Part shown: positions 1-17,161 of the stretch, in pieces | Position numbering within the stretch: the first letter of the stretch is position 1 | How the letters are laid out: every line of letters begins with the position of its first letter | Source: an uncultured virus (IMG/VR IMGVR_UViG_3300017724_000001) | Lineage: Duplodnaviria; Heunggongvirae; Uroviricota; Caudoviricetes; Crassvirales | Virus record (IMG/VR): IMGVR_UViG_3300017724_000001 | Length of the DNA: 20,000 nucleotides | Direction: 5' to 3' (one strand) | Program-made: the position numbers and the translations under genes | Notes under the pieces: model-generated | What the model saw: only the letters and a program-made list of their open reading frames with translations | Databases searched by the model: none | Told to the model about the DNA's origin: nothing

Positions 1-228
1 CTTACCTAACTCATCTATCCATGATTGAGCTACTGAATGTTTTGGAACTACTACCAGTACTTGTATGAACTGATCATAGTATCTTTGAAGGTGCTGTATT
101 GCTATTCTAGTTTTACCTACACCCATAGATATGGCTAAGCCACACCTTTTATGTTGCACAGCTATTGCTAATGCATCTTCTTGAACTACGTTTCTAGTTG
201 GAACAGCCGTTCCAGAATTATTTGCCAT
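1..228 (-). CDS. SF2 (SNF2/DEAD-like) helicase, N-terminal part; runs off the window edge
   Basis: Manual translation from ATG at 228: MANNSGTAVPTRNVVQEDALAIAVQHKRCGLAISMGVGKTRIAIQHLQRYYDQFIQVLVVVPKHSVAQSWIDELGK. It contains a Q-motif-like start, Walker A (MGVGKT) and motif Ia (LVVVP..V..SW..E). Confidence 0.85.
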   Translation of the reverse strand, partial: MANNSGTAVPTRNVVQEDALAIAVQHKRCGLAISMGVGKTRIAIQHLQRYYDQFIQVLVVVPKHSVAQSWIDELGK

Positions 229-302
229 AATATTATTGTTATTGATAGTACCATTGTCCAAGCTAATATTCTAATTAGCCTGTCTTTTTGATATTGTTTC
301 AT
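186..302 (-). CDS. Small single-pass membrane protein (38 aa)
   Basis: Manual translation MKQYQKDRLIRILAWTMVLSITIILWQIILERLFQLET*. It has one hydrophobic stretch and overlaps the helicase start. It is below the ORF-track length cutoff. Confidence 0.5.
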   Translation of the reverse strand: MKQYQKDRLIRILAWTMVLSITIILWQIILERLFQLET

Positions 303-308
303 CTCTCT

Positions 309-372
309 TTGGTGTTAAAGGTTTGCGCCTATTTTTATATGCTTGCGCCTATTTTTCGTTGGTGTTAAAGGT
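309..372. repeat. Nested direct repeats in an A-B-B-A arrangement at the 3' end of the tRNA cluster
   Basis: TTGGTGTTAAAGGT occurs at 309-322 and 359-372. TTGCGCCTATTTTT occurs at 323-336 and 343-356. Confidence 0.85.
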
Positions 373-445
373 GGACCCTACAGGACTTGAACCTGTGACC
401 TATCCGTTATGAGCGGAGTGCTCTGACCAACTGAGCTAAGAGTCC
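372..445 (-). tRNA. tRNA with CAT anticodon, most likely tRNA-Ile2 (lysidine type, reads ATA)
   Basis: Reverse complement GGACTCTTAGCTCAGTTGGTCAGAGCACTCCGCTCATAACGGATAGGTCACAGGTTCAAGTCCTGTAGGGTCCA folds as a cloverleaf. It has a G1-C72 pair, lacks the initiator GGG/CCC anticodon stem and closely resembles bacterial tRNA-Ile(CAU). It is followed by CCT, so CCA is not fully encoded. Confidence 0.9.
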
Positions 446-534
446 TGGTAGCCGGAGTGGGATTTGAACCCACACGGGCATTACTGCCCAAAGGATTTTA
501 AGTCCTTCATGTCTACCAATTTCATCATCCGGCC
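446..534 (-). tRNA. tRNA-Leu(TAA)
   Basis: GGCCGGATGATGAAATTGGTAGACATGAAGGACTTAAAATCCTTTGGGCAGTAATGCCCGTGTGGGTTCAAATCCCACTCCGGCTACCA. Anticodon TAA, long variable arm (GGGCA/TGCCC) and encoded CCA. Confidence 0.93.
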
Positions 535-539
535 ATTTG

Positions 540-613
540 TGATCCCACTAGGATTTGAAGCTAGAACCTACAGCTTAGAAGGCTGTTGCTCTATCCAGTT
601 GAGCTATAGGACC
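540..613 (-). tRNA. tRNA-Arg(TCT)
   Basis: GGTCCTATAGCTCAACTGGATAGAGCAACAGCCTTCTAAGCTGTAGGTTCTAGCTTCAAATCCTAGTGGGATCA. Anticodon arm ACAGC-CT-TCT-AA-GCTGT. The T-stem has C at the normally invariant G53. Confidence 0.88.
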
Positions 614-619
614 ATAAAG

Positions 620-889
620 TTATGATCTTGAGCCTGAGAATCCTAATTCATAAGATTCTTCTGGGTGTTCTTCTATCCACATGTGACAGTTTCTGCAAAC
701 TGGTAACCATGTAGATACTTCCAAGTGATATACACCACGACCGTGTTTATGATGAACATCAGTAGCCTGTACAGTACATTTATCTATTTTTGCATGACAG
801 ACTGGATTGTCCGTTAAATACTGCCTACGCTTTTTAGAGTAAGCAGCATTTATTTTGGACATTTTGTTTGAGACTTTTTTAATTGCCAT
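620..889 (-). CDS. HNH-type Zn-binding endonuclease (NinG/Rap-like small nuclease)
   Basis: C-x6-C, ATDVHH, and the LPVCRNCH motif typical of phage HNH proteins. Confidence 0.75.
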   Translation of the reverse strand: MAIKKVSNKMSKINAAYSKKRRQYLTDNPVCHAKIDKCTVQATDVHHKHGRGVYHLEVSTWLPVCRNCHMWIEEHPEESYELGFSGSRS

Positions 890-1406
890 TTGGTTTTAAA
901 GTAAAAAAGTTATTTGGTAACAAACCCACTGACATAAATTTAAGCACTATATCTTCATAGTTGATACCTAAATCTTTAAATGTAAGAGTGTTTTTGTAAT
1001 CATCTAACGTTTCCTCAGCTGGCACATCTGCAATTGCAAGAGCCATAGGACTGTGTGGAAATGTTTTCCTAAGATAAGCATTAATTCTCTTATTACAAAG
1101 TGTTTGTTTCCAGGCATTGATTTCTCTTTGCCCACGTTTCCAAACTTTTGTAATGCGTCTTTTCTTATCCCAGTGCAGTTTAGTAACTTCTTCAGGTTTA
1201 TAAACATTAAGGCCATGCAACACACGTTTAAACAAAAAATGTTGATATGGATTAAGTTTATTATACTCAAAAGAGTTAATAATTGAAGGAGGATGTAATT
1301 GATATTCATCCAGAAGGCCTAAGTATTGATAACGCTCAATACGTCTACTTAAGATTAGTTCTTTTTCATTGAGTTTTAGTTTTGAAATTTGTTCATTAGA
1401 TAGCAT
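879..1406 (-). CDS. Hypothetical phage protein (175 aa)
   Basis: Long ORF with an A-rich upstream region. It overlaps the start of the HNH gene, consistent with an operon. Confidence 0.75.
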   Translation of the reverse strand: MLSNEQISKLKLNEKELILSRRIERYQYLGLLDEYQLHPPSIINSFEYNKLNPYQHFLFKRVLHGLNVYKPEEVTKLHWDKKRRITKVWKRGQREINAWKQTLCNKRINAYLRKTFPHSPMALAIADVPAEETLDDYKNTLTFKDLGINYEDIVLKFMSVGLLPNNFFTLKPNGN

Positions 1407-1465
1407 ACTTGTTTGATTTATTTAGTTATGAATTTATTAGTTGTATTTAGTAAGAGGTGTTAAAT

Positions 1466-1491
1466 AGGCTGAGGTTTTTACACCCCAGCCT
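1466..1491 (-). terminator. Probable intrinsic terminator or stem-loop after the 1504-2118 gene
   Basis: Minus strand AGGCTGGGGT-GTAAAA-ACCTCAGCCT forms a 10-bp stem with one G-U pair, followed by ATTT. It can be extended by GTTAAA/TTTAAC. Confidence 0.6.
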
Positions 1492-1503
1492 TTAACAATT
1501 TAA

Positions 1504-2118
1504 TTACAGTTCAAAAGTTTCTGTTTCTTCTTCAAGAACTTCTTCTTCTTCTGTTTCTACTTCAGCAACAACTTCTTCTTCAGTTACTTCCATCTCATTG
1601 ACATCTTCTGTCTCATCAGTGGTTGTATCATCAGATTTCAAACCAAATGCTTCTGCAGTTGTTGCTTTTTTGATCTTAGACTTGTCTAATTCAAAAGAGC
1701 TTTCATTAGCTGCACGAATAGCATCACCATTAGTATGCTCAATCAGAATATCTTGTGCTTCTACATCATAAGTATATTCTGTTTTCCTATAAATAGGTTG
1801 TCCGTCTTGACAGCATATAATACCAGTGTCACCTGCATATTTCAGGTCTCTGTCTGGATTTGTGTTGTTAAAAGGTTCTAAAGACTCTATTGCTATGATT
1901 TTACCAGGTAATGTTTTACCTAAATTTTTAGCATAAGAGGTTAAATTCTCTGTTGTACCCATAATAAGAGTGGTAAGATTTCTTTCTCTTAACCAACCAC
2001 CTTTACCAATTGATACACTTTTGTATCCTAATCTAATGAAAGAATACTCTGGATTGTTTTTACTTAAGCGTACAACATTACCCATGTCATCCGCTAGGAC
2101 TTCTACTTGATTTTGCAT
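1504..2118 (-). CDS. Hypothetical protein, SSB-like (beta-rich core, long acidic tail ending ETFEL)
   Basis: The strongly acidic C-terminal tail with a terminal hydrophobic tip is typical of ssDNA-binding proteins. It is a paralog of 5237-5698. The function is inferred. Confidence 0.6.
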   Translation of the reverse strand: MQNQVEVLADDMGNVVRLSKNNPEYSFIRLGYKSVSIGKGGWLRERNLTTLIMGTTENLTSYAKNLGKTLPGKIIAIESLEPFNNTNPDRDLKYAGDTGIICCQDGQPIYRKTEYTYDVEAQDILIEHTNGDAIRAANESSFELDKSKIKKATTAEAFGLKSDDTTTDETEDVNEMEVTEEEVVAEVETEEEEVLEEETETFEL

Positions 2119-2162
2119 TTTTAATAAAATTAAATGATTAATAAAATAATTGTGTGTGATGA

Positions 2163-2435
2163 TTAACTATCATCAGAGTGAAAATACGGGTCTTCCAGTT
2201 TTTCATAAGCTTCAATCTCATCTAGTGCAGGCTCATATTCTTCAATATTTTCTATTGCTTCATCTGAGACAGCTTTACCAGTTGCTTTTGCAAACTTATT
2301 ATACCATGGATCAACCACTTCCTTTGTGTATGCGGAGCTAAGGCCATTTAGATCATTGTACTCTTCATCAGAGAGAGAAAGGTACTGTTCTAAGGAACAT
2401 TCTATGATTCTGCCATTAGGAAGTTGTATTATCAT
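2163..2435 (-). CDS. Hypothetical acidic protein (90 aa)
   Basis: Co-oriented ORF lying just downstream of a TAnnTTTG promoter motif. Confidence 0.7.
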   Translation of the reverse strand: MIIQLPNGRIIECSLEQYLSLSDEEYNDLNGLSSAYTKEVVDPWYNKFAKATGKAVSDEAIENIEEYEPALDEIEAYEKLEDPYFHSDDS

Positions 2436-2454
2436 TATCTTATCTAAAGTTTAT

Positions 2455-2462
2455 CAAAGATA
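2455..2462 (-). promoter_or_regulatory. Bacteroidota sigma-ABfr type -7 element (TATCTTTG)
   Basis: Matches the TAnnTTTG consensus. It is intergenic, about 20 nt upstream of the ATG at 2435. Confidence 0.55.
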
Positions 2463-2531
2463 ATAATATAACTTAATCTGTGTCAGAAATATAAAGTGAA
2501 TTTGGACTTAACTCAAAAATAAAAAGCATAA

Positions 2532-2544
2532 ATATAGCTAACGC
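2532..2544 (-). promoter_or_regulatory. Conserved box GCGTTAGCTATAT, copy 1
   Basis: An identical 13-mer occurs at 17161-17173 (+). A 16-nt match (CGTTAGCTATATTTAT) occurs at 4950-4965 (+). Confidence 0.55.
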
Positions 2545-2545
2545 A

Positions 2546-2797
2546 TCATAATATGGTTAACTTATTACCTATTCTTTTTATATATTTATATGATTTTAGC
2601 TCTTTTATCCATCTTTTAACTGATGATTGACTTGAGCCACAGTCATCTGCAAGCTTACTAATTGATGGCCAACAAATTCTGTTTTTATTGGCATAACAGC
2701 ATAATATACTGTACAAGCCTTTAGCTTGAACTGACAAGTTAGGATCTGTACATACTTTATGTTTAACTATACCATATCTATTTGATTCCTTCAACAT
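2546..2797 (-). CDS. Winged helix-turn-helix DNA-binding protein (HTH_36-like)
   Basis: LSVQAKGLYSILCCYAN..ICWPSISKLADDCGSSQSSVKRWIKELKSYKYI is the pattern of phage replication-initiator-type HTH domains. Confidence 0.8.
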   Translation of the reverse strand: MLKESNRYGIVKHKVCTDPNLSVQAKGLYSILCCYANKNRICWPSISKLADDCGSSQSSVKRWIKELKSYKYIKRIGNKLTIL

Positions 2798-2990
2798 GGT
2801 TCTTAATTATAATGAGCATGGCCATATTGGTATCATGTTCATCAGTAAGATCCTTGTCTTTAAAGGCATACTTTTCTTGCATGTACATGCCAAAAGGTAC
2901 ATTAAGACCTCCAACCCTTTTAAGTGATTTGTCTAACTCTAACCATGATTTATGTTCAGAGTTCAATAGTTCCATTGATATCTTTGCCAT
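2778..2990 (-). CDS. Hypothetical protein (70 aa)
   Basis: Overlaps both neighbouring genes on the same strand. Confidence 0.6.
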   Translation of the reverse strand: MAKISMELLNSEHKSWLELDKSLKRVGGLNVPFGMYMQEKYAFKDKDLTDEHDTNMAMLIIIKNHVEGIK

Positions 2991-3540
2991 CTTCTTGAAA
3001 ATTTAGTTCTGTTTGTTTTACTTTTTTAAAATAAGTTATGAATCTCTTTTGTATGTTAAGAGCATGCAGAGGACTAACGGTAGTTTCTACAAACTTAAGG
3101 TTTTTATCATCATCATGATACATTAAATTCACTTTTATAGTAGAATAAAACGGGTCATAAGGATCAGAACCCCAAGAAGAGTCACCAACTACTTGACCAT
3201 ATACATAATAGTCACTATACTCATCACCTTTACCTAGTAATCCCATGTCTTCAAGAACATCTAATTCAAATTCACTGCCTTGATGATAGTTTGGTGGTAC
3301 TAGTCTAACATAACTACCAATCTCTGTTGGTACAAAAGTTCTTTCTGTTAGCATAAGATGTATTATAGCTTCTAGAGCTGAATCTTTAACTTCTTTAGAT
3401 ATTATATCTGTTATAAATTTTAAATTGTTTGGTTTATTGATAGATTTTTGATCAAATAAACCTGAAAGGATGCCTTTTAATACTTCATCCTGTACGTGAT
3501 ATTGTTTTGCCATTGATTTTATATTGTAATCAAAGACCAT
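2956..3540 (-). CDS. Hypothetical protein; the true start may be ATG 3513 (MAKQYH...)
   Basis: 194-aa ORF. The second ATG is preceded by the A-rich AATATAAAATCA. Confidence 0.75.
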   Translation of the reverse strand: MVFDYNIKSMAKQYHVQDEVLKGILSGLFDQKSINKPNNLKFITDIISKEVKDSALEAIIHLMLTERTFVPTEIGSYVRLVPPNYHQGSEFELDVLEDMGLLGKGDEYSDYYVYGQVVGDSSWGSDPYDPFYSTIKVNLMYHDDDKNLKFVETTVSPLHALNIQKRFITYFKKVKQTELNFQEDGKDINGTIEL

Positions 3541-3664
3541 ACTGCAAACAAGTATGAAATGTAACAGTAATAGTCTTTGATCTGATTAAGAACACAGCCT
3601 CAATACCTAGTATTAATATAATATATAATTACTGGTATTGTTAGTGGTCCATATACGAGACTTT

Positions 3665-3976
3665 TTATTTTCTTCTTTGGAAGATTATAGTTAAGAAAGG
3701 CAACTTCAATTCCCAATGACGAGTTACTTTCTCTATGTCAAGACCAATTCCAGGTCTTGCGTTTACTCTCATCCTAGGCAAAAGGTATGTTCTATCCATA
3801 TGAATAGCATAGAAGATTGCATTGATGAAAGTTAATGCGGTTACAATACCAAAGGCAACTATAAGAATAGGTGACCAAGGTGTGTAATAAACTAGATTAA
3901 CTAGTACTACTGTCATAGCAAAAGGTAGAACAGCTACGAAGATTAACTTGATAAGATACTTGAATAAATATTTCAT
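3665..3976 (-). CDS. Membrane protein with two predicted TM helices
   Basis: Two hydrophobic segments (LIFVAVLPFAMTVVLVNLVYY and ILIVAFGIVTALTFINAIFYAI). Confidence 0.7.
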   Translation of the reverse strand: MKYLFKYLIKLIFVAVLPFAMTVVLVNLVYYTPWSPILIVAFGIVTALTFINAIFYAIHMDRTYLLPRMRVNARPGIGLDIEKVTRHWELKLPFLTIIFQRRK

Positions 3977-4001
3977 GATATATAATTTAATTGATTAATG
4001 A

Positions 4002-4172
4002 TTAACGACCCCATTTGGATCTCTTGTGTCTCTTTTTAGGTTTCCAATAGTTCTTCTTTGCAAAATGCTTTTTACTTTTCTTGACAGAGCATTTACGAGA
4101 AGAACCACATGATTGTAACATTGGTCCACCTATGAATAGTAATAGAATAAAATATAAGAATTGTTTTTTCAT
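4002..4172 (-). CDS. Small, very basic lipoprotein (56 aa)
   Basis: Manual translation MKKQFLYFILLLFIGGPMLQSCGSSRKCSVKKSKKHFAKKNYWKPKKRHKRSKWGR*. It has an MKK n-region, a hydrophobic core and the lipobox-like LQSC. Confidence 0.7.
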   Translation of the reverse strand: MKKQFLYFILLLFIGGPMLQSCGSSRKCSVKKSKKHFAKKNYWKPKKRHKRSKWGR

Positions 4173-4199
4173 AACGTTTTAGTATTAGATTTTAAAAAA

Positions 4200-5230
4200 G
4201 CCAGTCTGTTTTATCCAACTACAACTGGCATGGCTGTCCTATGAATACTCATAGTTAGGAATAAGTCATTTGATTATTAGGTGAGACCAACACCTACCAA
4301 CATACTCATTGGTTGATTAGACACTATAGGTAATTAACCTACTTCACTTCATGTGTGTCACACTAGTCTAGAATTACCTAGACACGTATCTTTATATTGT
4401 TCTTGAGTTAAAAATAAAGAGCCTGATTACCTCTTAACGACCGTTTACCCGGTTGACGGTGACTGTTACATATTCAACAGACAAGTCAAATACACGGTTT
4501 CAGGTTGTCAAACCTTACAGGTACATTGACCCTAACGTATACGAGGTTAAGCTGACAAACTACTCCTCTTGGTGTACAAAGTGACACCCAACACTCCCGT
4601 TGCCACGGGTTTAAAAGATATAACTAATAGAGATATTCACTCCGCTATTTACCTCCATCCATGCGGTAGGATTATTAGTTATTATGATAAAGCTAATAAC
4701 CATAACCTGTAGTCTTATTGGTATTGTTGATCCACATTCCTCTAGTTATGGTATTAGCATATTGAGTTTAGATTACTGTAAGTTCTCTCTTACGCCAGCA
4801 ACTCACTGGATTAGACCAACCATGTTTATACAGGAATTTATCTATGTGCCTGTTTTAATATTGCGGGTAATATGACTCTTATCCTATAGAGGAAGAGACA
4901 AAGACTACCCTTGTTATATTGTTGAGTGTAATAGTTACGCTTGTAGCTACGTTAGCTATATTTATATTATTAGTAACACTCATAGTTACAAGAGTGGTAA
5001 AAGGTGGTATTTTGTGGGTATAAGACCTCACATTCAGAGTGACACACACAAAAAAAATAAAATTACCACACTTTTATAACTTAATTCAATTGTTTTTGAC
5101 TCTATGTAACAATAGTTAGTAGTTATTGCTTGAGAGTAGTAACATTCTGTACTAATTCTATTTTTATAAGTGCTAAACATAGTTTGGGAGCAGACGTGCT
5201 GAAAAGCACGCCCACCCACAAGCTACTATG
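4200..5230 (+). ncRNA. Candidate large structured non-coding element (RNA or ssDNA)
   Basis: About 1 kb with no credible ORF and more than 12 adjacent stems. Most wobble pairs read as G-T on the + strand. Confidence 0.45.
5179..5210 (+). promoter_or_regulatory. Box plus hairpin element, copy 1: ATAGTTTGGGAGCAGA-CGTGCT-GAAA-AGCACG
   Basis: The 16-nt box is identical to 5781-5796 and is followed directly by a perfect 6-bp stem with a GAAA loop. Confidence 0.6.
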
Positions 5231-5236
5231 TTACAA

Positions 5237-5698
5237 TTACGCATCTACAGTTTCCTGCTTAAACGCATTCAAGCTCTCTACAGCTACAGTAGAGTTGTTA
5301 GCCTCTCTTATCTCAGCACCATTGGTGTGCTGAATAAAAGTAGACTGAGCATTAAGGTCTGAGGTAAACTCTGTAGTTCTGTAAATAGGTTTATCCCCTT
5401 TCATACATACTATCTTTGAGTCTCCGGCATACTTTAATTTGTATGTCAAATCCTTATCATTGAATGGCTCAAGTTGCTCACGCACAATAATCTTACCTGT
5501 CAATGGTTTTGAGTGGTCCATAGACTCAAGCAAAGCTATTGGGCCTAATACTAATGCTGACAAAGATTTATCTGCATACCAACCATTTCTAAGTTCAACG
5601 GCCTTTTGTTCATAGATTACAAAGCCTATATCTTTGTTCTTTGTTTTACTGATGAATGTTCCGTCTTCATTCTTGCGTACTGTTACTAAATTGTTCAT
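5237..5698 (-). CDS. Hypothetical protein, paralog of 1504-2118 without the acidic tail
   Basis: Shares GKII..E.LEPFN, LKYAGD, I.C...(G/D).PIYR.TE and I.HTNG..IR.AN with 1504-2118. Confidence 0.8.
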   Translation of the reverse strand: MNNLVTVRKNEDGTFISKTKNKDIGFVIYEQKAVELRNGWYADKSLSALVLGPIALLESMDHSKPLTGKIIVREQLEPFNDKDLTYKLKYAGDSKIVCMKGDKPIYRTTEFTSDLNAQSTFIQHTNGAEIREANNSTVAVESLNAFKQETVDA

Positions 5699-5780
5699 AA
5701 TGAAATTATTTAATTATTAAATTGATTACAATAGTGATAAGGCTATTGCTGAAAAGGTTAAACGGCTTATCCCGCTATAT

Positions 5781-5812
5781 ATAGTTTGGGAGCAGAGGCA
5801 TTGAAAAATGCC
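5781..5812 (+). promoter_or_regulatory. Box plus hairpin element, copy 2: ATAGTTTGGGAGCAGA-GGCATT-GAAA-AATGCC
   Basis: Same box, same spacing and same loop as copy 1. The stem sequence differs but is fully paired. Confidence 0.6.
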
Positions 5813-6040
5813 GTATATGCACACAGTGAGTCCATCATATATATACTACTGATGAATACAAACAAATCAATGATGTATTGATATTCAGTAGATACCTGAC
5901 GTAGACACAGTAGCACTACACTACTCCGCTTTGCTACCACACAATAGTCATACATTCTTTTTTTTTGTACAACTTTATGCAGTTAGCAAGTGCAGTTAGA
6001 GTTCCTATGCAAACATAGGGGGTACCCGCACTGCAAAATT

Positions 6041-6055
6041 TAGTTGGGGAGCAGA
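6041..6055 (+). promoter_or_regulatory. Box element, copy 3 (TAGTTGGGGAGCAGA, one mismatch, no adjacent 6-bp hairpin)
   Basis: 14 of 15 positions match copies 1 and 2. Confidence 0.45.
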
Positions 6056-6215
6056 TCCTATATACCTCTTGAAAGTGCCAAACACACAATTTTTTGGTGG
6101 GGCGTAGGGACAATTTTACAGTAGACGGGGGGATGTTGTGGCTCAAAAATTTTTATAGGACGGGGAATTTTAGTATATTGTTTTTATAGAAGAGTTACTC
6201 ACTAAACAAAATACT

Positions 6216-6539
6216 ATGGCTGATTGGGATGATAACGGGGAAAAAGAAACTGGTGGTTTATCTGACATACAGCAAATGCAGTTAGATGCTATTATATTAG
6301 ACACAGCATACAACAATGCATGGATGTTACTGACCGGGGAAATTACTTTTGAAGAATTAATATCAACTCAATTTAGTGAGGGAAAAGAGTTAGTGATGGC
6401 TTATGATCCAGACAATGGACCGAAACTTGAAGAATTAGAAAATATGATAGCGTACTTCGTAGAAGAAGAAGACTATGAGAAGTGTGCTGCATTAAGGGAT
6501 ATAATGTTTAAAGCGTATCCGGAAACTTATGAAGCTTAG
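6216..6539 (+). CDS. Acidic hypothetical protein with a C-terminal UVR (UvrB/C)-like motif
   Basis: LENMIAYFVEEEDYEKCAALRD resembles the UVR coiled-coil motif. It is the first gene of the plus-strand arm. Confidence 0.65.
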   Translation: MADWDDNGEKETGGLSDIQQMQLDAIILDTAYNNAWMLLTGEITFEELISTQFSEGKELVMAYDPDNGPKLEELENMIAYFVEEEDYEKCAALRDIMFKAYPETYEA

Positions 6540-6544
6540 AAATT

Positions 6545-6754
6545 ATGGCATTAAAAAGAAAAACAACTAAAAAGAAAAAAAGTACCGTAAATAGTTCAGG
6601 GAATTATACTAAACCGGGAATGCGTAAAAGATTATTTAATTCTATCAAGGCTGGTAGTAAGGGTGGTGCACCTGGTCAGTGGTCTGCACGTAAAGCACAA
6701 ATGCTTGCTAAACGTTACAAAGCTAACGGTGGTGGATACAAATCCAAGAAATGA
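6545..6754 (+). CDS. Small basic protein, similar to the N-terminal half of the DUF5872 family
   Basis: YTKPGMRKRLFNSIKAGSKGGAPGQWSARKAQMLAKRYKANGGGYK, recognised from memory of this family. Confidence 0.7.
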   Translation: MALKRKTTKKKKSTVNSSGNYTKPGMRKRLFNSIKAGSKGGAPGQWSARKAQMLAKRYKANGGGYKSKK

Positions 6755-6972
6755 TGAAAGACCTAACCCTAAATATTGGTAATATAATCTGGATCATAGG
6801 TATTATATTCACAATGGGTATAGCATATAGCCAAATAGCACAATTATCAGATGATATGGTTGTACTAGAAGCTAGGCTAGAAAAAAAAATAAAAATAATC
6901 AATGAATCGGAAGATAGGATTGTAGAATTAGAGAAAGAAATTATTAGGCTACAAGAATCAAGATGTAAGTAA
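6751..6972 (+). CDS. Single-TM plus coiled-coil protein (possible holin- or spanin-like)
   Basis: N-terminal hydrophobic helix followed by a heptad-rich region. It has an ATGA overlap with the upstream gene. Confidence 0.65.
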   Translation: MMKDLTLNIGNIIWIIGIIFTMGIAYSQIAQLSDDMVVLEARLEKKIKIINESEDRIVELEKEIIRLQESRCK

Positions 6973-7214
6973 TGGCAAAGACTAAACAACAAAAAAGTCT
7001 AACTAGATGGACTAAGCAGAAATGGAGAACGGCAAGCGGAAAGAAATCTTCCGAAACCGGAGAGGTATATGCACCTTCTAGAACTATATCTAAACTTAAG
7101 AGTACTAAGAAAGGTAAAAAGAAATTGGCTGCAGCTAATGCAAAGAAACGTGCTGCTACCAAGAAAGGTAAACAACACGCAAGTCACGGTTTGCATAAAG
7201 GAAAGAAAAGATAA
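6972..7214 (+). CDS. Small basic protein, similar to the C-terminal half of the DUF5872 family
   Basis: QQKSLTRWTKQKWRTASGKKS..TGEVYAP....KRAATKKGKQH. It is joined to both neighbours by TAATG coupling. Confidence 0.65.
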   Translation: MAKTKQQKSLTRWTKQKWRTASGKKSSETGEVYAPSRTISKLKSTKKGKKKLAAANAKKRAATKKGKQHASHGLHKGKKR

Positions 7215-7507
7215 TGGCAGTTAAGAAAAAAGATAGTAGATTAGCTAAAGCTGGTGTATCAGGATATAACAAGCCTAAACGTACACCTGGACACCCTAAG
7301 AAGTCCCATATTGTTGTAGCCAAAGAAGGAGATAAGATTAAGACTATACGTTTTGGACAAAAAGGTGCAAAGACTGCTGGTAAACCAAAAGCAGGTGAGT
7401 CAGCTAAAATGAAAGCTAAACGTAAGAGTTTTAAGGCTAGGCATGGCAAAAACATAAAGAAAGGCAAAATGTCTGCTGCTTATTGGGCAGACAAAGTTAA
7501 ATGGTAG
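7214..7507 (+). CDS. Small basic conserved phage protein
   Basis: Lys-rich, with K.IRFGQ.G, RKSFKARH and SAAYWA.KVKW motifs common in aquatic phage proteins. Confidence 0.75.
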   Translation: MAVKKKDSRLAKAGVSGYNKPKRTPGHPKKSHIVVAKEGDKIKTIRFGQKGAKTAGKPKAGESAKMKAKRKSFKARHGKNIKKGKMSAAYWADKVKW

Positions 7508-7510
7508 GAT

Positions 7511-7726
7511 ATGACAGCAGCACAGTTAAGAGAATTGGGATTTACCAAAATGGGTCATCATGAAGATGATGATTGGCCAGAAGGATATTTCTACTTTAGT
7601 ATTGAGTTTGGAGATATGCTATTTCATACCGGGGGTAATGATGAAGCTGAAGAAGATGGGGGATGGTATATTCAAGATCCTACAATGACTATTAAAATAT
7701 GGCAATATTCGGAAGCTAAAATGTAA
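7511..7726 (+). CDS. Hypothetical acidic protein, possibly extending to 7770 through a frameshift
   Basis: Co-oriented ORF starting 3 nt after the previous stop codon. Confidence 0.6.
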   Translation: MTAAQLRELGFTKMGHHEDDDWPEGYFYFSIEFGDMLFHTGGNDEAEEDGGWYIQDPTMTIKIWQYSEAKM

Positions 7727-7796
7727 TTGACGTACTTAGACGTAATACGGTTTCTAAAATAAGTATCTAAACTTTTTTTATTTAAACTATTTTTTA

Positions 7797-7804
7797 TACA
7801 TTTG
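7797..7804 (+). promoter_or_regulatory. Bacteroidota-type -7 element (TACATTTG)
   Basis: Matches TAnnTTTG. It is intergenic, about 28 nt upstream of the ATG at 7833. Confidence 0.5.
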
Positions 7805-7832
7805 TTTTTATTAACTTATAAAAAATAGTAAA

Positions 7833-8144
7833 ATGTCAGATTCAAAAACCAATTCAAATATTCAAGACAAAGATCCAAAAATGTCTAAAGAAGAAATGTC
7901 AGCACGTAGAGATGAAATTACTCAATTCTACAATGATAATATTCCACACTTGGAAGTTCAAGCAGATTATGAAACGTTATTAGCTACTATAGAAAAGGCT
8001 AGAGCAGAGCGTATGCAAGCCCAAATGTTTATGGCACAGCAATATGCTGCTCAAAAAGGTGAAGGTGCACCAGATCTTAATACAGAAGAAGGTAAAGCTT
8101 TTCAAGAAGCAATGGTAAAAGCTATGCAAGATGAAACAGCTTAA
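7833..8144 (+). CDS. Hypothetical helical protein (103 aa)
   Basis: ORF with an A-rich leader that overlaps the endolysin start. Confidence 0.7.
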   Translation: MSDSKTNSNIQDKDPKMSKEEMSARRDEITQFYNDNIPHLEVQADYETLLATIEKARAERMQAQMFMAQQYAAQKGEGAPDLNTEEGKAFQEAMVKAMQDETA

Positions 8145-9051
8145 GAGAGGTGATAGAGGCTCAGATGTTAAAACACTACAGACAGCATTAGGGCTTACCG
8201 TAGATGGGGTCTTTGGACCCTTGACAGAAAAAGCTGTAGAAAGATTCCAATTAGATAAGGACTTAATGGTTACAGGAGTTGTAGACTCTAATACATGGAC
8301 ATTAATTCTAAATATGGAATATACTGTTACAGAAGCAATTGACGAAGATACAGATGCTTCATCTCAGTATTTTAAAACAAACTATGATCAAATAATTCAT
8401 AGACATCACTTACCAAAAGGAGAATACCTTAAGGGACCTATACAAAATGAATATATATTTTTACATCATACAGCAGGTAATGCTAATCCATATAGATGTA
8501 TTGATCATTGGGGTAGGGATACTAGAGGAAGAGTTGCCACTGAATTTGTTTTAGGAGGTATCAATCACAGAAATGGTGATGATGAGTTTGATGGTGTTAT
8601 GGTACAAGCTTTTCCTGAAGGATGTCAAGGATGGCATTTGGGTAGGACAGGTTCAGGATTTATGAACCGTCACTCTGTAGCATTAGAAATATGCAGCATG
8701 GGTTATTTAGATAAAAATCATTTAACTTATGTTGGGTCTAAATGTACACCAGATCAAGTTGTTACTCTTGATGAACCATTTAAAGGCAAGCTATATTGGC
8801 ATACATATTCAGAAGCACAAATTAAAGAAACAGAAAAGTGGATTAAATATGTTGCTGATAGAGATAATATAGATGTAAGATTAGGACTACAACAATTTAT
8901 TAAAAAGTATGGTCCAACAAAAGGCTTTGATTTTCAACAAGATGCATTCTATGGAAAAATAAAAGGTTTATTAACACACACCAATGTTAGGAAAGGTAAA
9001 ATGGATTGTTATCCTCATCCTGACTTTGTTGATATGATAATGAGTTTATAA
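8131..9051 (+). CDS. N-acetylmuramoyl-L-alanine amidase (endolysin) with an N-terminal peptidoglycan-binding domain
   Basis: LKRGDRGSDVKTLQTALGLTVDGVFGPLTEKAVERFQ matches PG_binding_1. The IFLHHTAG, WHLG, SVALEIC, LLTHTNV and K.DC.P motifs match Amidase_2 Zn ligands. Confidence 0.9.
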   Translation: MKQLKRGDRGSDVKTLQTALGLTVDGVFGPLTEKAVERFQLDKDLMVTGVVDSNTWTLILNMEYTVTEAIDEDTDASSQYFKTNYDQIIHRHHLPKGEYLKGPIQNEYIFLHHTAGNANPYRCIDHWGRDTRGRVATEFVLGGINHRNGDDEFDGVMVQAFPEGCQGWHLGRTGSGFMNRHSVALEICSMGYLDKNHLTYVGSKCTPDQVVTLDEPFKGKLYWHTYSEAQIKETEKWIKYVADRDNIDVRLGLQQFIKKYGPTKGFDFQQDAFYGKIKGLLTHTNVRKGKMDCYPHPDFVDMIMSL

Positions 9052-11859: not shown

Positions 11860-12000
11860 ATGAGTAAAAACAAAACACAATGGCTATTTTGCTATTGGGA
11901 TGAGCCAGAATTTAATTATAAACCAATAAATAAAAAGAATGAAAAATCAAGTAGTAGTACCAGTAGGAATGAAGCTTCTAATAAAGGAGATAAAACCTGA
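11860..12000 (+). CDS. Possible 46-aa micro-ORF
   Basis: ATG directly after the upstream TAG, translating as MSKNKTQWLFCYWDEPEFNYKPINKK... It overlaps groES. Confidence 0.35.
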   Translation: MSKNKTQWLFCYWDEPEFNYKPINKKNEKSSSSTSRNEASNKGDKT

Positions 12001-12217
12001 AACTAAAACTAAGTCAGGATTATACTTACCTGAGATAGCACTTAAACAAACATTTCAAGGTAAAGTAGTGGGTAGAGGTGATGAGGTAACTGAAATACAA
12101 ATAGGTGATGTTGTTCAATATGCAGAACATGCTATGCCTACACCAATGAAACACCAAGGAGAAGATCATTTGTTATTACAAGTAGGTGATGTATATGCTA
12201 TCATAAGATATGAGTAG
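11939..12217 (+). CDS. groES: Co-chaperonin GroES (Cpn10)
   Basis: P.G.KLLIK, mobile loop ETKTKSGLYLP, GKVVGRG, IQIGDVVQY and GEDHLLL...DVYAII. Length is 92 aa. Confidence 0.9.
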   Translation: MKNQVVVPVGMKLLIKEIKPETKTKSGLYLPEIALKQTFQGKVVGRGDEVTEIQIGDVVQYAEHAMPTPMKHQGEDHLLLQVGDVYAIIRYE

Positions 12218-14399
12218 AATCATACCTACATATGAAAATGGAAAGTGGGATGTAACGTCATTTGAAAGTGATGAAGACTTTGCAGAATATCTATATAGTA
12301 TTTTTAAAGAACCTGGTAAATATAACTTTACCAAGATAGCTCTTGAATTTAATAAAGAAGCAAGAGTATTTAATGAGCAAGGGTTTTATTGTAATAAGCC
12401 ATTTAGGTCAAAAGATTTTACTGCTTATTGGGAAGATCAAAAAAATAAATGTAGAGTAGGAGTTATATATAAAGATGGTGATAATCAATGGTATTTAACT
12501 AGAGATTATTATATGTGGCTAAACTTTTTACCAATCTTTGATAAAGAAGAAAAGCATTATGGTTTTGCTAAGGTAAGAGATGCACAATATCACATGGCTT
12601 TGTATGAACTATTAGCTGAGTTAAATAATCAGCATTCTGCAATACTTAAAAAACGTCAGATAGCATCCTCATATTTTCATATGGGTAAGATTATAAATCA
12701 ATATTGGTTTGAAGAAGGTTCAATTTGTAAAGTAGGAGCATCATTAAAAGATTATATTAATGATAAAGGTTCATGGAAGTTTTTAGAAGAATATAAAACA
12801 TTTCTTAATGAACATACCGCATGGTATAGACCAAGTAATCCTGAAAAGGTTTTACTATGGCAACAGCAAATTGAGGTCAAAGTAAACAATAGAAAAACAT
12901 CAAGAGGTCTCAAATCAAAGATACAAGGTGCTTCATTTGAAAAGAATGCTACTACAGGGGTAGGGGGTCCATGTACATATTTCTTTCATGAGGAGGCAGG
13001 AATTGCTAAAAACATGATGCAGACATATGAGTATTTGCGTCCTGCAATGTCATCCGGTATGATGACTACAGGTATGTTTATAGCTGCTGGATCAGTGGGT
13101 GATTTAGAACAATGTGGTCCATTAAAAGAAATGATACTTAATCCAAGTGCTAATGATATATATGCTGTAGAAACAAATCTAATGGATGCTGATGGAACAA
13201 TTGGTATGGCAGGGTTATTTATTCCAGAACAATGGTCTATGCCCCCTTATATTGATGATTATGGTAACTCACAAGTTGAAGAAGCAATAGAAGCAATAGG
13301 ATTAGAAAGAGCAAGATGGAAAAATGAATTAAGTGGTGAACAGTATCAATTAAGAATATCACAAAAACCTCTTAATATAGGAGAAGCATTTGCATATAGA
13401 AAAGAGTCTGTTTTCCCACAAGGTATTTTAAGTAAACAACTTAAACGTATTGAAGAGAAAGAATATGCATATGAATTAATTGAATTAGATAGAGATCAAA
13501 CTGGTATAGTTGCAAAACGTACAAAAAAATTACCTATATCAACTTTTCCAGTAAACAAAAAAGAAATTGATAAAACAGGATCTATTGTTGTATGGGAAAG
13601 ACCAGTTAAAAGCCCAGCATTTGGTGCATATTATGGATCAATTGACCCTGTGTCAGAAGGGAAGACAACAACATCAGATTCTTTGTGTAGTATTTATATT
13701 TATAAAAATGCTACTGAAGTAACAAGAACAACTGTGTCAGGTGAAGTAGAACAATTCATTGAAAAAGATAAAATTGTAGCAGCATGGTGTGGGCGTTTTG
13801 ATGATATAAATAAAACTCATGAAAGATTAGAAATGATCATAGAATGGTATAATGCATGGACAATTGTTGAAAACAATATTTCATTATTTATACAGCATAT
13901 GATTGCTAGAAAAAAACAAAGATATCTTGTTCCTAAACAACAAATACTTTTCTTAAAAGATCTTGGATCTAATAGAACAGTATATCAAGAATACGGATGG
14001 AAAAATACAGGTACATTATTTAAGAGTCATCTGATATCATATGCAATAGAATTTTTAAGAGAAGTTATTGATGAAGAGCTTGATGAAAATGGAAATGTAA
14101 TGCAACAAACATTGGGTGTTGAAAGAATACCAGATCCAATGCTACTTAAAGAAATGTTAGCATATTATCCAGGATTAAACGTTGATAGGCTTGTAACATT
14201 TGGTGCATTGATTGCATTTGTGAAAATTCAACAGTCAAATAGAGGCTATACTAAGAGACGTGAATCTGAAGGCAATTCTTTGGATAATTCAGAAAAAATG
14301 AGTAAATTAAAGTATAATGGTCCTTTTAGAAATATTGGGCGTAACAAGACATTTGGTGGTTCTAAAATTAGAAGGTCCGGATTCAAGAATATAAAATAG
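12210..14399 (+). CDS. terL: Terminase large subunit, crAss-like
   Basis: Walker A-like LKKRQIASS, Walker B FFHEEAG, RNase H-like nuclease YYGSIDP and the C-terminal NVDRL. It precedes the portal. Confidence 0.9.
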   Translation: MSRIIPTYENGKWDVTSFESDEDFAEYLYSIFKEPGKYNFTKIALEFNKEARVFNEQGFYCNKPFRSKDFTAYWEDQKNKCRVGVIYKDGDNQWYLTRDYYMWLNFLPIFDKEEKHYGFAKVRDAQYHMALYELLAELNNQHSAILKKRQIASSYFHMGKIINQYWFEEGSICKVGASLKDYINDKGSWKFLEEYKTFLNEHTAWYRPSNPEKVLLWQQQIEVKVNNRKTSRGLKSKIQGASFEKNATTGVGGPCTYFFHEEAGIAKNMMQTYEYLRPAMSSGMMTTGMFIAAGSVGDLEQCGPLKEMILNPSANDIYAVETNLMDADGTIGMAGLFIPEQWSMPPYIDDYGNSQVEEAIEAIGLERARWKNELSGEQYQLRISQKPLNIGEAFAYRKESVFPQGILSKQLKRIEEKEYAYELIELDRDQTGIVAKRTKKLPISTFPVNKKEIDKTGSIVVWERPVKSPAFGAYYGSIDPVSEGKTTTSDSLCSIYIYKNATEVTRTTVSGEVEQFIEKDKIVAAWCGRFDDINKTHERLEMIIEWYNAWTIVENNISLFIQHMIARKKQRYLVPKQQILFLKDLGSNRTVYQEYGWKNTGTLFKSHLISYAIEFLREVIDEELDENGNVMQQTLGVERIPDPMLLKEMLAYYPGLNVDRLVTFGALIAFVKIQQSNRGYTKRRESEGNSLDNSEKMSKLKYNGPFRNIGRNKTFGGSKIRRSGFKNIK

Positions 14400-14410
14400 A
14401 CTAAACAGGT

Positions 14411-17161
14411 ATGAGAGTATTAAATGCAATGCAAATGAAGAATGGGGCAAAAGCTGAAAGCGGGCCTACATTTTCTAGCTTAACACAACCGGTTCAGTTT
14501 TTACCTTATAAAAAAAAGGATGATGATTGGGCTGCATGGAATTTAGATTGGTTAGAACTTCAAGGCATTGAATTCCTACGTGTAAATTCTAGAAGGCTTT
14601 TAAAGAATTATAAGTTAGCTAAAGGTATAATTGATAAGACTGATTATATTGTTGAACCAGATAATGAATACAAAGATTTAATGGACGTTCTTACAGCTGA
14701 AAATGACTCAGCTTTAGAACTTAAATTTTATCCTATTGTACCTAATGTAATAAATGTATTAACAGGAGAATTTGCCAAAAGATATTCAAAGGTGCAGTTT
14801 AGAGCTGTAGATGATGCATCATACAATGAAATGCTTGAGCAAAAGAAAATTCAAATAGAAGAATCTTTATTGGCTGATGCAGAAGCAAACTTAGTACGTA
14901 AAATGATTGAGATGGGTGCTGACCCTGGATCAGAAGAAGCACAAAAGCAATTATCTCCAGAAGGTTTAAAATCATTACCAGAGATTGAAGACTTTTTTAG
15001 TAAGTCTTACAGAAGTATGGTAGAAGAATGGGCATCCCATCAACTTGCAGTAGATGAAGAAAGATTCAAAATGCAAGAACTTGAAGAAAGAGGTTTCCGT
15101 GATATGCTTATTGCAGATAGAGAATTTTGGCATTTTAGAATGTTAGAAGATGATTATGATGTAGAGCTTTGGAATCCTGTATTAACTTTCTATCAAAAAT
15201 CTCCTGATCAAAGATATATTGCAGATTCAAACTATGCAGGTAAAATTGATTTAATGACTGTATCAGATGTAGTAGATAGATATGGTTATTTAATGGATTC
15301 CAAACAATTAGAATCCCTACAAAAGATATATCCTGCTAGATCAGCACAATATCAAGTTAGTGGATATCAAAATGATGGTGCATATTATGATGCAACAAGA
15401 TCTCACGAATGGAATACCAATGCACCAGGATTAGGTTACAGACAATTTACATCTAACTATTGGAATGATCCCGCTAGAGGTGGTGATATACTTAGTGAAA
15501 TACTAGATGAGAATGAAGATGTATCTATGTGGGGTGAAGGTAACCTAATGAGAGTTGCTACAATATATTGGAAAACACAAAGAAAAGTTGGTCATCTTAC
15601 TAAAATTGAAGATGATGGTGAAGTTACTCAAGAGATTATAGATGAGACCTTTAAGATAACCAAAAAGGCCATATATGATACTTCTATATTTAAACAAAAG
15701 TCAAAAGATAACTTATTACAAGGTGAACATGTTGACTGGATTTGGATTAATGAAGTATGGGGTGGTGTAAAAATTGGACCAAACTTACCAGCTATGTGGC
15801 AATCTACTATGGGTGATAATATTAATCCTATTTATTTAGGTATTAATAGAACTAAGCCTGGAAGATTACCATTTCAGTTTAAAGGAGATACATCATTATA
15901 TGGGTGTAAATTACCTGTAGAAGGTAGAGTATTTTCTGATAGAAATACTAGATCTACTTCTTTAGTAGATTTAATGAAAGCATATCAAGTTGGATATAAT
16001 ATGGTTAATAACCAAATTGCTGACATTCTAATAGATGAATTAGGAACAGTAATAATGTTTGATCAAAATGCTTTACCACGTCACTCAATGGGTGAGGATT
16101 GGGGTAAGAACAACTATGCAAAAGCATACGTAGCAATGAAAGATTTTCAAATGCTACCTCTTGATACATCTATTACAAATACTGAGAATGCAACTAACTT
16201 CAATCATTACCAGACTCTAAATATGGAGCAAACTAATAGATTGATGTCTAGAATTCAACTTGCAAATTATTTTAAGCAACAATGTTTTGATGCAATAGGT
16301 ATTAACCCACAACGTTTAGGTGGAGCTGTCTCAGCTCAAACCGCAACAGGCGTTGTTCAGGCTATGCAACAATCATATGCACAAACAGAAATGTATTTTG
16401 TACAACACTCTGATCATTTGATGCCACGTATCCATCAAATGAGAACTGACTTAGCACAATATTATTATAGTACTAATCCAAGCGTTAGACTACAATACAT
16501 ATCTACAGAAGCTGAGAAAGTTAATTTCCAAATTAATGGTACGGATTTATTACTTAGAGACTTTAACGTATTTGCAACAACTAAGACTAATCATAGAGCT
16601 ATATTAGAAAACTTAAAGCAAATGGCATTAACTAATAATACTTCAGGAGCAAGTATTTATGAGTTAGGTAATATAGTTAAAGCAGACTCAATTGCAGAAG
16701 TATCAGATATACTTAAAGATTCTGAAATTAGAATCCAGAAGCAAAGACAAGAAGATATGCAGCAACAGCGTCAAATGCAAGAGCAGCAACTTCAAGCTAA
16801 GCAACAAGAAGAACAACAAAAACTTCAAGTTGAAATGTCTGAAAATGAAAAAGATAGACAGAATGATGTGTTACTAGCTGAAATTAGATCAGCCGGATAT
16901 GGGTCAATGGTTGATTTAAATCAAAATCAACAATCTGATTATCAAGATGCTATGAAGGATATAAGAGAATCTACACAGTATAGAGAGCAAATGAATTTTA
17001 AACGCCAAGAAAGTGCTGTTAAATCTGCACAAGAAAATAATAGATTGAGCGTTGAAAGAGAAAAAATTGCTGCATCTAAACAAATAGCTGATACTAAACT
17101 TCAAATTGCAAGAGAGAACAAAAATAAGTATGATGTCAAAAATGAGAAAGATAAAAAGTAG
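14411..17161 (+). CDS. Portal protein, crAss-like
   Basis: 916 aa, directly after TerL. It carries YPI.PN.INVL.GE..KR, WINEVW.G.KIG, SLVDLMK.YQ and GI.PQRLG, and a Q-rich coiled-coil C-terminus. Confidence 0.85.
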   Translation: MRVLNAMQMKNGAKAESGPTFSSLTQPVQFLPYKKKDDDWAAWNLDWLELQGIEFLRVNSRRLLKNYKLAKGIIDKTDYIVEPDNEYKDLMDVLTAENDSALELKFYPIVPNVINVLTGEFAKRYSKVQFRAVDDASYNEMLEQKKIQIEESLLADAEANLVRKMIEMGADPGSEEAQKQLSPEGLKSLPEIEDFFSKSYRSMVEEWASHQLAVDEERFKMQELEERGFRDMLIADREFWHFRMLEDDYDVELWNPVLTFYQKSPDQRYIADSNYAGKIDLMTVSDVVDRYGYLMDSKQLESLQKIYPARSAQYQVSGYQNDGAYYDATRSHEWNTNAPGLGYRQFTSNYWNDPARGGDILSEILDENEDVSMWGEGNLMRVATIYWKTQRKVGHLTKIEDDGEVTQEIIDETFKITKKAIYDTSIFKQKSKDNLLQGEHVDWIWINEVWGGVKIGPNLPAMWQSTMGDNINPIYLGINRTKPGRLPFQFKGDTSLYGCKLPVEGRVFSDRNTRSTSLVDLMKAYQVGYNMVNNQIADILIDELGTVIMFDQNALPRHSMGEDWGKNNYAKAYVAMKDFQMLPLDTSITNTENATNFNHYQTLNMEQTNRLMSRIQLANYFKQQCFDAIGINPQRLGGAVSAQTATGVVQAMQQSYAQTEMYFVQHSDHLMPRIHQMRTDLAQYYYSTNPSVRLQYISTEAEKVNFQINGTDLLLRDFNVFATTKTNHRAILENLKQMALTNNTSGASIYELGNIVKADSIAEVSDILKDSEIRIQKQRQEDMQQQRQMQEQQLQAKQQEEQQKLQVEMSENEKDRQNDVLLAEIRSAGYGSMVDLNQNQQSDYQDAMKDIRESTQYREQMNFKRQESAVKSAQENNRLSVEREKIAASKQIADTKLQIARENKNKYDVKNEKDKK

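Follow-up and report, generated by a model that had tools for sequence, protein, structure and literature searches.

The closest known case to the locus described here is that of the early intergenic RNAs of Cellulophaga phage phi14:2 (junctions g004-g005 and g005-g006), which are transcribed above most genes, persist late and have no known function (10.1101/2020.03.07.982082). We analysed a stretch of 20,000 nucleotides (nt) from an uncultured crAss-like virus (IMG/VR record IMGVR_UViG_3300017724_000001; Crassvirales), hereafter called the window, in which a gene-poor tract of about 1 kilobase (kb) lies between two minus-strand genes. Like phi14:2, the window combines a crAss-like phage, a marine Bacteroidota setting and a gene-poor stretch of 1-1.7 kb inside a presumably early gene block; in the phi14:2 record this is a 1.7-kb stretch (2905-4601) from which former calls of open reading frames (ORFs) have been removed. 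The phi14:2 RNAs run with the flanking early genes, and the structural evidence presented below would favour the same strand for our tract. On balance, and with modest confidence, we favour the reading that the tract is an array of exchangeable cassettes, two of which (modules E and F) would be stable minus-strand RNAs.

The gap spans positions 4173-5236, between the minus-strand genes 4002-4172 and 5237-5698 (153 amino acids). A preliminary description of the window, made from its letters alone, had called a 1-kb gap exceptional in this tightly packed genome, and the gap proved to be real. In the nearest complete record, G001 (a virus record of 114,219 bases with direct terminal repeats, ~99% identical to the window across the tract), its counterpart of 945 nt is the largest internal gap without ATG-started ORFs of at least 60 amino acids, and the second-largest measures 392 nt. 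The tract had also been described as ORF-free; this does not apply in the strict sense, since ORFs of up to 63 amino acids are present. BLASTN found nothing similar to the tract among GenBank phages. We traced relatives by way of the flanking 153-amino-acid protein and by two exact patterns, and mapped the gap pairwise in six of them. The tract is made up of the following parts.

Module A, core 4862-5060 (whole module about 4857-5236): present in all relatives examined.
Module B, 4760-4857: three short hairpins, present in only some relatives.
Module C, 4686-4768, read on the minus strand: long hairpin 4692-4758, then TTTAT.
Module D, 4614-4688, read on the minus strand: long hairpin 4620-4682, then CTTTT.
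Module E, 4409-4612, read on the minus strand: candidate multi-branched structured RNA of ~205 nt with a T-rich end.
Module F, 4194-4404, read on the minus strand: structured, with a terminal hairpin at 4200-4229 followed by T6 at 4194-4199.
T-runs, minus strand: T6 (4194-4199) after hairpin 4200-4229 of F; TTTATTTTT after E; CTTTT after D; TTTAT after C.

The pairwise maps show that the modules were gained and lost independently of one another. Module B is missing from three relatives (L010, L011 and L012), which carry protein genes, or nothing, in its place, and module D is missing from L010 and L008. In L012 only 13 nt separate module A from the next gene start, and ~670 nt of the tract are missing. 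Homologs of module B with 85-94% identity occur in distant family members; module F was found in the window's own lineage only, plus partial copies (83-85% identity) in the distant loci L085, L047 and L064. Where the window has only non-coding DNA between A and C, L010 has a gene of 115 amino acids. L011 carries a gene for a 66-amino-acid membrane protein between A and D as well as a 74-amino-acid gene after E, and the window lacks both. The places taken by these genes in L010 and L011 are those of modules B and F in the window. The module C hairpin adjoins the stop of the 115-amino-acid gene in L010 and L008, and the module D hairpin adjoins the stop of the membrane-protein gene in L011. Because these hairpins follow gene stops in the relatives, C and D of the window are best read as leftover, and probably orphan, 3' hairpins of cassettes whose coding parts the window has lost.

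Further observations concern the boundaries of the modules. The centre of module C is similar to mid-module A sequence of L076 and L089. G001 carries an insert of 97 nt (15912-16010, corresponding to window position 4685) with its own hairpin and T-run, placed exactly at the boundary between C and D and present in the G001 lineage only; no second copy of any module was found elsewhere in the G001 genome. The motif TAATACTAAA lies at 4178-4186 on the minus strand, a few bases ahead of the ATG of gene 4002-4172. The same motif or a close variant is found 4-8 nt ahead of the ATG of cassette genes in the window (1375-1383 and 6169-6177) and in L008, L010, L011 and L012, and also ahead of cassette-gene ATGs in many loci that bear module E. 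All cassette genes have it ahead of their ATG. It may be a translation-start or promoter element, and it may mark a recombination boundary.

Compensatory changes in excess of controls, the mark of a structured non-coding RNA (ncRNA), were found for module E only. A first alignment of 12 distinct sequences gave a multi-branched consensus of 53 pairs in which 99.1% of 635 cells were paired, a value matched by none of 500 shuffles; 75 cells read as G-U on the minus strand and would be mismatched as C-A on the other. Another 23 loci came from a metagenome pattern scan, and a covariance model built from the first alignment retrieved 34 matches, 25 of them distinct. In the resulting fitted alignment of 25 sequences, 97.4% of 1284 cells were paired. 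Two-sided changes that kept the pairing affected 14 pairs (33 cells), compared with 4.7±1.1 pairs and 9.0 cells in shuffles (0/500), and slid controls reached at most 7 such pairs. When the 23 full-length distinct sequences were realigned with MAFFT, independently of the model, the minus strand gave −34.4 kcal/mol and 52 pairs, 15 of them with two-sided changes, and the plus strand −23.3 kcal/mol and 40 pairs, 7 of them with two-sided changes. The inner helices agree between the fitted and the MAFFT analyses. For the outer region two folds were obtained, either a long closing helix between the 5' and 3' ends or a local hairpin together with a 3' hairpin ahead of the T-run. These findings point to module E as a candidate for a new structured RNA on the minus strand, outside Rfam. 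The preliminary description had proposed to collect homologs and look for covariation, and the outcome was divided: compensatory changes in E, none in the nine consensus pairs of A.

We compared 22 distinct contexts of module E. Its upstream neighbours are gene stops (of at least two unrelated genes), hairpin D (8 contexts) and hairpin C (2 contexts). On the downstream side, the script's first-ATG rule gives 13 contexts in which an ATG-led ORF begins 13-19 nt past the end of E (L123 is a 14th by eye), and these ORFs belong to several unrelated families; the other 8 or 9 contexts have a further non-coding module there, as the window has F. Having several unrelated neighbours on both sides, E behaves as a unit of its own, and a longer early transcript probably includes it. 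In bases 1-9000 of phi14:2 the covariance model of E had no match. In four contexts (L110, L122, L031 and L131) E is followed by another non-coding module, which starts with ACTACACTGATTGATGACAC and is absent from the window. The pool of non-coding cassettes therefore exceeds the six seen in the window.

We then asked on which strand the modules are read. Fourteen stems had been listed in the preliminary description, with wobble pairs said to favour the plus strand. Thirteen of these intervals fold and one (5111-5127) is unfolded on both strands, with a minimum free energy (MFE) of 0. The strand preference went the other way: the minus strand is the more stable in eight intervals and the plus strand in three (4440-4460, 4505-4558 and 4924-4981), while in two the strands lie within 0.3 kcal/mol of each other. 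Consensus folds of the homologs favour the minus strand over the plus strand for C (−11.9 against −5.8 kcal/mol; 6 distinct sequences), D (−14.2 against −11.4; 6 sequences), E (−42.3 against −29.8), F (−38.7 against −27.3; 4 sequences) and the hairpin at 5178-5230 (−25.3 against −18.3; 6 sequences). For module B the two strands are about equal (−13.4 minus, −13.5 plus; 7 sequences). In F, 13 pairs stay Watson-Crick through two-sided changes among its four distinct sequences, a small sample. As read from the sequence, T-runs on the minus strand end C, D, E, F, hairpin 5178-5230 and the G001 insert. Taken together, wobble pairs, consensus energies and T-runs lead us to infer that C, D, E, F and hairpin 5178-5230 are read on the minus strand, the same as the flanking genes.

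Hairpin 5178-5230 lies on the minus strand 7 nt downstream of the stop of the 153-amino-acid gene and is terminator-like, with a short T-run. In the window its MFE is −25.6 kcal/mol (z −5.19) on the minus and −18.5 kcal/mol (z −3.80) on the plus strand. A second copy of this hairpin (window 5172-5205; for example L018 113-146), ~82% identical over 34 nt, sits ~500 nt further upstream in relatives, after another gene.

Folding energy alone decides nothing for the tract. The whole-tract MFE is −282.4 kcal/mol on the minus and −268.6 kcal/mol on the plus strand, and the corresponding z-scores are −4.36 and −4.84 (40 dinucleotide shuffles for each strand). Four coding controls of equal length gave z-scores of 0.02, −2.51, −3.77 and −3.96. 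In windows of 120 nt the tract is unremarkable, with a mean z of −0.70 (plus) and −0.98 (minus) compared with −0.56 for the remainder of the window. The comparison with dinucleotide shuffles, which had been suggested earlier as a check, hence yielded a modest excess for the whole tract and nothing outstanding at the scale of 120 nt.

The preliminary description had not recognised a known family in the tract, and the searches agreed. Rfam covariance models had no match in the tract at gathering or at permissive thresholds. A search of the window with Rfam 15 (including GOLLD, ROOL, riboswitches, 6S, transfer-messenger RNA (tmRNA) and Y RNA-like models) found only three transfer RNAs (tRNAs) at 372-613. 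At permissive settings, 3900-5500 produced three matches no better than chance (expectation values of at least 0.94), all scoring far under their gathering levels. The loci of 12 relatives yielded one tRNA, and seven loci with divergent homologs of E yielded nothing relevant. With ARAGORN, neither the tract nor the loci of 21 relatives yielded a tRNA or tmRNA.

Public sequencing runs were examined for parts of the locus. Twenty of the 24 listed run rows hold part of 3600-5800, and 11 are recorded as RNA; all shares are 0.35 or lower. Four RNA-recorded runs consist of assembled contigs without strand that may include DNA, and uncovered parts mean nothing. Contigs from RNA libraries contain module E (X3, 4406-4649; X5, 4502-4685). 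Another contig from X3 (4948-5753) spans from the 153-amino-acid gene across hairpin 5178-5230 into module A, which suggests that this hairpin need not stop all transcription. The contigs are at most compatible with transcription through the tract. A contig of 461 nt (X5, record 9; loose ends also in X3) matches only window 4202-4239, that is 38 nt of the terminal hairpin of F, and runs on into the 5' half of a tRNA gene, so that this hairpin adjoins a tRNA in some relative.

We propose that the tract would be a cassette array rather than a single RNA, set among the early minus-strand genes of a marine crAss-like phage. Element A, ancient and fixed, would be accompanied by variable, exchangeable non-coding modules (B-F) at the place where relatives carry small protein genes. 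E and F would be structured RNA domains of ~200 nt, co-directional with the flanking genes and probably within an early polycistronic transcript, each ending at its own hairpin and U-run. They would accumulate as stable ncRNAs, in parallel to the phi14:2 early intergenic RNAs, and may work in trans, with binding to a protein of host or phage as the likeliest mode. The module mosaic, the covariation and minus-strand preference of E and the minus-strand preference of C, D, F and hairpin 5178-5230 are what the data show; transcription of E and F, their RNA ends, their stability and any target are inferred. Among the three options offered by the preliminary description, a cluster of small RNAs comes closest, given the covariation in E, except that the RNAs would lie on the opposite strand and are mixed with remnants of lost cassettes.

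Several points weigh against this proposal. The contigs from RNA libraries are strandless and possibly DNA. The whole-tract z-scores are only slightly past those of two of the four coding controls, and the alignments of C, D and F comprise only four to six distinct sequences. The 25-sequence alignment of E was fitted to the model, and its homologs were fetched with exact patterns, so that the pattern sites are invariant by construction. A terminator scan (loops of 3-8 nt) reported no minus-strand hairpin in the tract, its sole match being 4366-4383 on the plus strand. Given this silence and hairpin loops of 9-43 nt, the C-F hairpins are probably not canonical intrinsic terminators. No conserved promoter-like sequence was found upstream of E in the 22 contexts, and E is therefore possibly just a 3' untranslated region, a leader or an elaborate terminator. 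A comparison of the tract with phi14:2 by BLAST (word size 7) gave chance matches only, and the flanking proteins are unrelated. Finally, module A, the best-conserved part of the tract, is left unexplained by a model of RNA cassettes and has a weak lean to the plus strand.

Module A was considered in its own right. A 20-mer from A recovers 63 viral contigs. The core is represented by 37 distinct sequences, in which pairwise identity averages 0.76 and long blocks are invariant; 61 loci have it in a fixed syntenic place, flanked by the p70/p153 genes on one side and the lipo56/p103/p194 genes on the other. The proteins beside A are only 25-70% identical to those of the window in distant relatives; core A is far better conserved than its neighbouring proteins. 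Its motifs are single-copy in G001, where the conserved block occurs once even when 5 mismatches in 23 nt are allowed. The ORFs that flank A lie on the window's minus strand in 46/46 cases upstream and 42/44 downstream. The 20-mer also occurs in two metagenome-assembled contigs. One is a 12-kb contig of a Flavobacteriales metagenome-assembled genome (MAG), a weak hint to the host. The other (L109; 114,697 bases, binned as Pseudomonadales) has the size of a whole phage genome and is probably a phage contig misbinned into a Pseudomonadales MAG.

The structural evidence in A is confined to one hairpin. The consensus fold is weak (−8.3 kcal/mol plus, −2.7 kcal/mol minus) and comprises just 9 pairs among the 37 distinct sequences, all in hairpin 4865-4910 and none with two-sided changes; two of the listed stems, 4924-4981 and 4994-5069, lack conservation in this wider family. 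A pairwise covariation scan of A was swamped by phylogenetic correlation. Two features inside the module matter for what follows.

Hairpin 4865-4910, plus strand: sole conserved hairpin of A, outer stem GGGTA/TACCC, apical stem CCTA/TAGG.
Candidate ORF, TTG at 4919 to TAA at 5023, plus strand: 34 amino acids, hydrophobic, inside module A.

Two outer pairs of the hairpin are G-C in 28 and 24 of the 37 sequences and G-T in 7 and 13, respectively, which fits the plus strand only. These C-to-T changes could equally be ordinary transitions, and for the sequence of the window itself the minus-strand fold is the more stable one (−16.1 kcal/mol, plus strand −12.4 kcal/mol). Core A leans weakly to the plus strand. 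It may be a DNA element (an origin or a control region) or a small plus-strand gene; it may also be a stretch of early transcript without structure, or combine several of these.

A serious if tentative possibility is that module A, acting as DNA, is the functional heart of the locus (a replication origin or a control region of the downstream early genes) and the remaining tract is incidental. Its single copy, its fixed synteny and a conservation of sequence that comes with so few consensus pairs are what such an element would show, and the next gene's ATG lies ~27 nt beyond A in ~12 of 53 loci. The folded single-stranded template or origin region offered in the preliminary description may likewise apply to core A. 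In the window, three direct repeats with 10-nt spacing (4994-5023) stand beside an AT-rich stretch; the full triple repeat is intact in only 14 of the 37 sequences. The GC-skew turn of G001 also speaks against an origin at A: it coincides with the switch of gene orientation, ~1.2 kb from module A. A weak codon-like periodicity in A hints at a different constraint. An ORF with the N-terminal domain of a replication initiator lies 2 kb downstream, as would suit an origin. This ORF of 83 amino acids (2546-2797, minus strand) matches only the N-terminal ~75 residues of phage replication-initiation or DnaD-like profiles, which are 280-455 positions long, and may be a stand-alone DNA-binding domain or a split initiator.

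Hairpin promoters of the N4 type, which serve a virion RNA polymerase, occur in several copies per genome and have a stem of 5-7 bp and a 3-nt loop on the template strand. We rejected module A as a promoter of this type: its conserved block is single-copy in G001, and its hairpin measures 46 nt and has internal loops. The plus strand is the template for transcription in the minus direction, and A as another kind of template-strand element is possible.

We consider it doubtful that A instead encodes the small hydrophobic peptide of 4919-5023, with hairpin 4865-4910 as a structured 5' leader and minus-strand read-through as antisense, in the manner of a type I toxin-antitoxin system or of a small membrane protein gene. 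All 37 sequences keep the frame open across the hydrophobic part, and the third codon position is the most variable (entropy by codon position 0.35/0.35/0.55). The ratio of non-synonymous to synonymous polymorphism (pN/pS) is 0.46, but the antisense frame, whose third positions coincide, gives an equal value of 0.47. The G-C to G-T changes of the hairpin would fit a plus-strand leader, and conservation beyond coding need would fit a constraint from RNA-RNA pairing. Against a gene speak its two ends. There is no ATG anywhere in frame, the TTG is present in 33/37 sequences and missing from four, and in L058 a TAG stands right after it. An early in-frame stop occurs in 7/37 (a frame of 37-39 codons, of the L050 type, including L054), and the C-terminus varies, at 37-74 codons, with 1-nt indels. 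The protein was predicted only 4 times among 5.8 billion clusters, and none of the four largest ORFs of the tract matched a Pfam or PHROG family with an expectation value below 0.29.

Other coding readings of the tract were tried and rejected. ORF 5034-5219 is broken and full of stops in 4 of 6 relatives, and the start of ORF 4684-4875 is destroyed by the 97-nt insertion in G001. The minus-strand ORF 4879-5049 is open in relatives, but its start is not conserved and 1-nt indels occur upstream. With TAG read as glutamine there is no ORF inside the tract. With code table 4, a plus-strand ORF of 131 amino acids (4684-5079) appears; it spans modules that are separate in relatives, and its start is likewise destroyed in G001.

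For E, and perhaps F, a role in cis is the rival to a role in trans: the module would be a leader (an attenuator, riboswitch-like or for processive antitermination) that gates RNA polymerase past the T-run into the next gene. The contexts of E show both sides of this question. The ATG-led ORFs close behind E are where a gated gene would lie, and the F hairpin with its T6 stands ~20 nt ahead of the ATG at 4172; the genes after E, however, are mutually unrelated, and a substantial part of the contexts has a non-coding module there. The two alternative outer folds of E would suit a switch, but they may be prediction uncertainty. Five elements of hairpin plus T-run stand in series before the downstream genes, so that a mechanism for read-through is needed. 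No ligand or partner is known, and no Rfam riboswitch matched. Overall, we regard such a leader as unlikely.

Less probable still, in our view quite unlikely, is that the tract is mostly debris, that is, functionless 3' ends and linkers left over from recombination of early cassettes and conserved through recent exchange. Much of the mosaic would be expected from such a process. Module boundaries are gene-cassette boundaries, C and D stand after intact genes in relatives, the extra 97-nt module is restricted to the G001 lineage, and modules shared at 83-94% identity occur in phages with much more divergent proteins, a pattern that recent exchange would produce. Debris would leave unexplained the two-sided pair-keeping changes in 14 pairs of E, against 4.7 in shuffles, and the invariant blocks of A across 37 distinct sequences, next to neighbours down to 25-50% identity.

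The central proposal of the preliminary description, a single structured ncRNA of ~1 kb on the plus strand, antisense to the flanking genes and similar to GOLLD or ROOL, is highly improbable: although the plus-strand z-score of the whole tract and the three stems that are better on the plus strand would agree with it, Rfam has no match, the modules occur separately in relatives (one of which lacks ~670 nt of the tract), wobbles, T-runs and consensus folds speak for a minus-strand reading of C, D, E, F and hairpin 5178-5230, and the plus-strand consensus of the core has 9 pairs.

The surroundings of the tract identify the window. PHROG profiles matched the large terminase (12210-14399), the portal (14411-17161) and the major head protein (18669 onward), and further matches were to an endolysin, an exonuclease and a GroES-like protein. 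The terminase shares ~25% identity with its counterparts in crAss-like phages of Bacteroides, Flavobacterium and Cellulophaga. The terminase and portal matches, together with this likeness, show the window to be phage DNA of a crAss-like setting. Genes lie on the minus strand left of ~6150 and on the plus strand right of 6216, with a divergent switch at ~6150-6216, and the tract thus lies inside a minus-strand block of small, co-directional genes; by analogy, this would be the 'early' block. The same minus-strand block contains three tRNA genes head to tail (370-613; Met-CAT, Leu-TAA and Arg-TCT). The gene for the GroES-like co-chaperonin (11939-12217) lies directly upstream of the large terminase gene.

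CrAss-like phages are among the most abundant viruses of Bacteroidota, and their early-gene expression is poorly understood. To our knowledge, just one marine member has been studied; it produces early intergenic RNAs in abundance, with no known function, and we know of no promoter motif found in phi14:2 for the virion RNA polymerase. Module E offers a candidate RNA family of ~200 nt that has a testable consensus structure, occurs in dozens of environmental phage contigs and is absent from Rfam. Module A is a single-copy element of ~200 nt that stays nearly unchanged amid proteins diverging to 25-50% identity. Should E and F prove to be functional RNAs, the accessory gene pool exchanged by these phages would include non-coding cassettes; should A be an origin, or the place where the virion polymerase starts, a known gap in the biology of crAss-like phages would be filled. 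A bolder speculation, to which we give little credence, is that marine crAss-like phages trade 'RNA cassettes' like small protein genes, with E and F serving host takeover or anti-defence and A being a cis site that launches early expression or replication, for example a template-strand element for the virion RNA polymerase. Read soberly, the locus illustrates that a gene-free gap in a phage can record lost gene cassettes rather than one large RNA.

How the cassette array compares with known systems can now be stated. Large phage ncRNAs such as GOLLD and ROOL share with the tract that they are phage-borne, structured and non-coding. Unlike them, the tract has no Rfam match and is not one unit, and its structured parts are ~200 nt long and on the other strand.

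Riboswitch-type attenuators and cis-acting antitermination RNAs such as HK022 put resemble module E in being structured RNAs upstream of early genes, beside a hairpin and U-run, in an operon with many terminator-like hairpins. They differ from E, which has no sequence or Rfam match to them, is ~200 nt long with a multi-branch core and often has a non-coding downstream neighbour.

Phage 'morons' are mosaic gene cassettes bounded by conserved linkers. The cassettes of the window are like them in their independent gain and loss between conserved boundaries, in having their own 3' hairpin and in the repeated motif in the start region of the next gene. Unlike morons, several cassettes of the window are without any protein gene, and at least E is constrained as an RNA structure.

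In phi14:2 the expression of the intergenic RNAs was measured, whereas that of our tract is deduced from sequence and fold. In the literature that was searched, no later study of the phi14:2 RNAs was found. Modular, exchangeable make-up and conserved secondary structure are seen in the window tract and do not appear in the available part of the phi14:2 account. Relative to that part of the account, what this locus adds is its modular and exchangeable make-up, the covarying consensus structure of one module and the deeply conserved core of module A.

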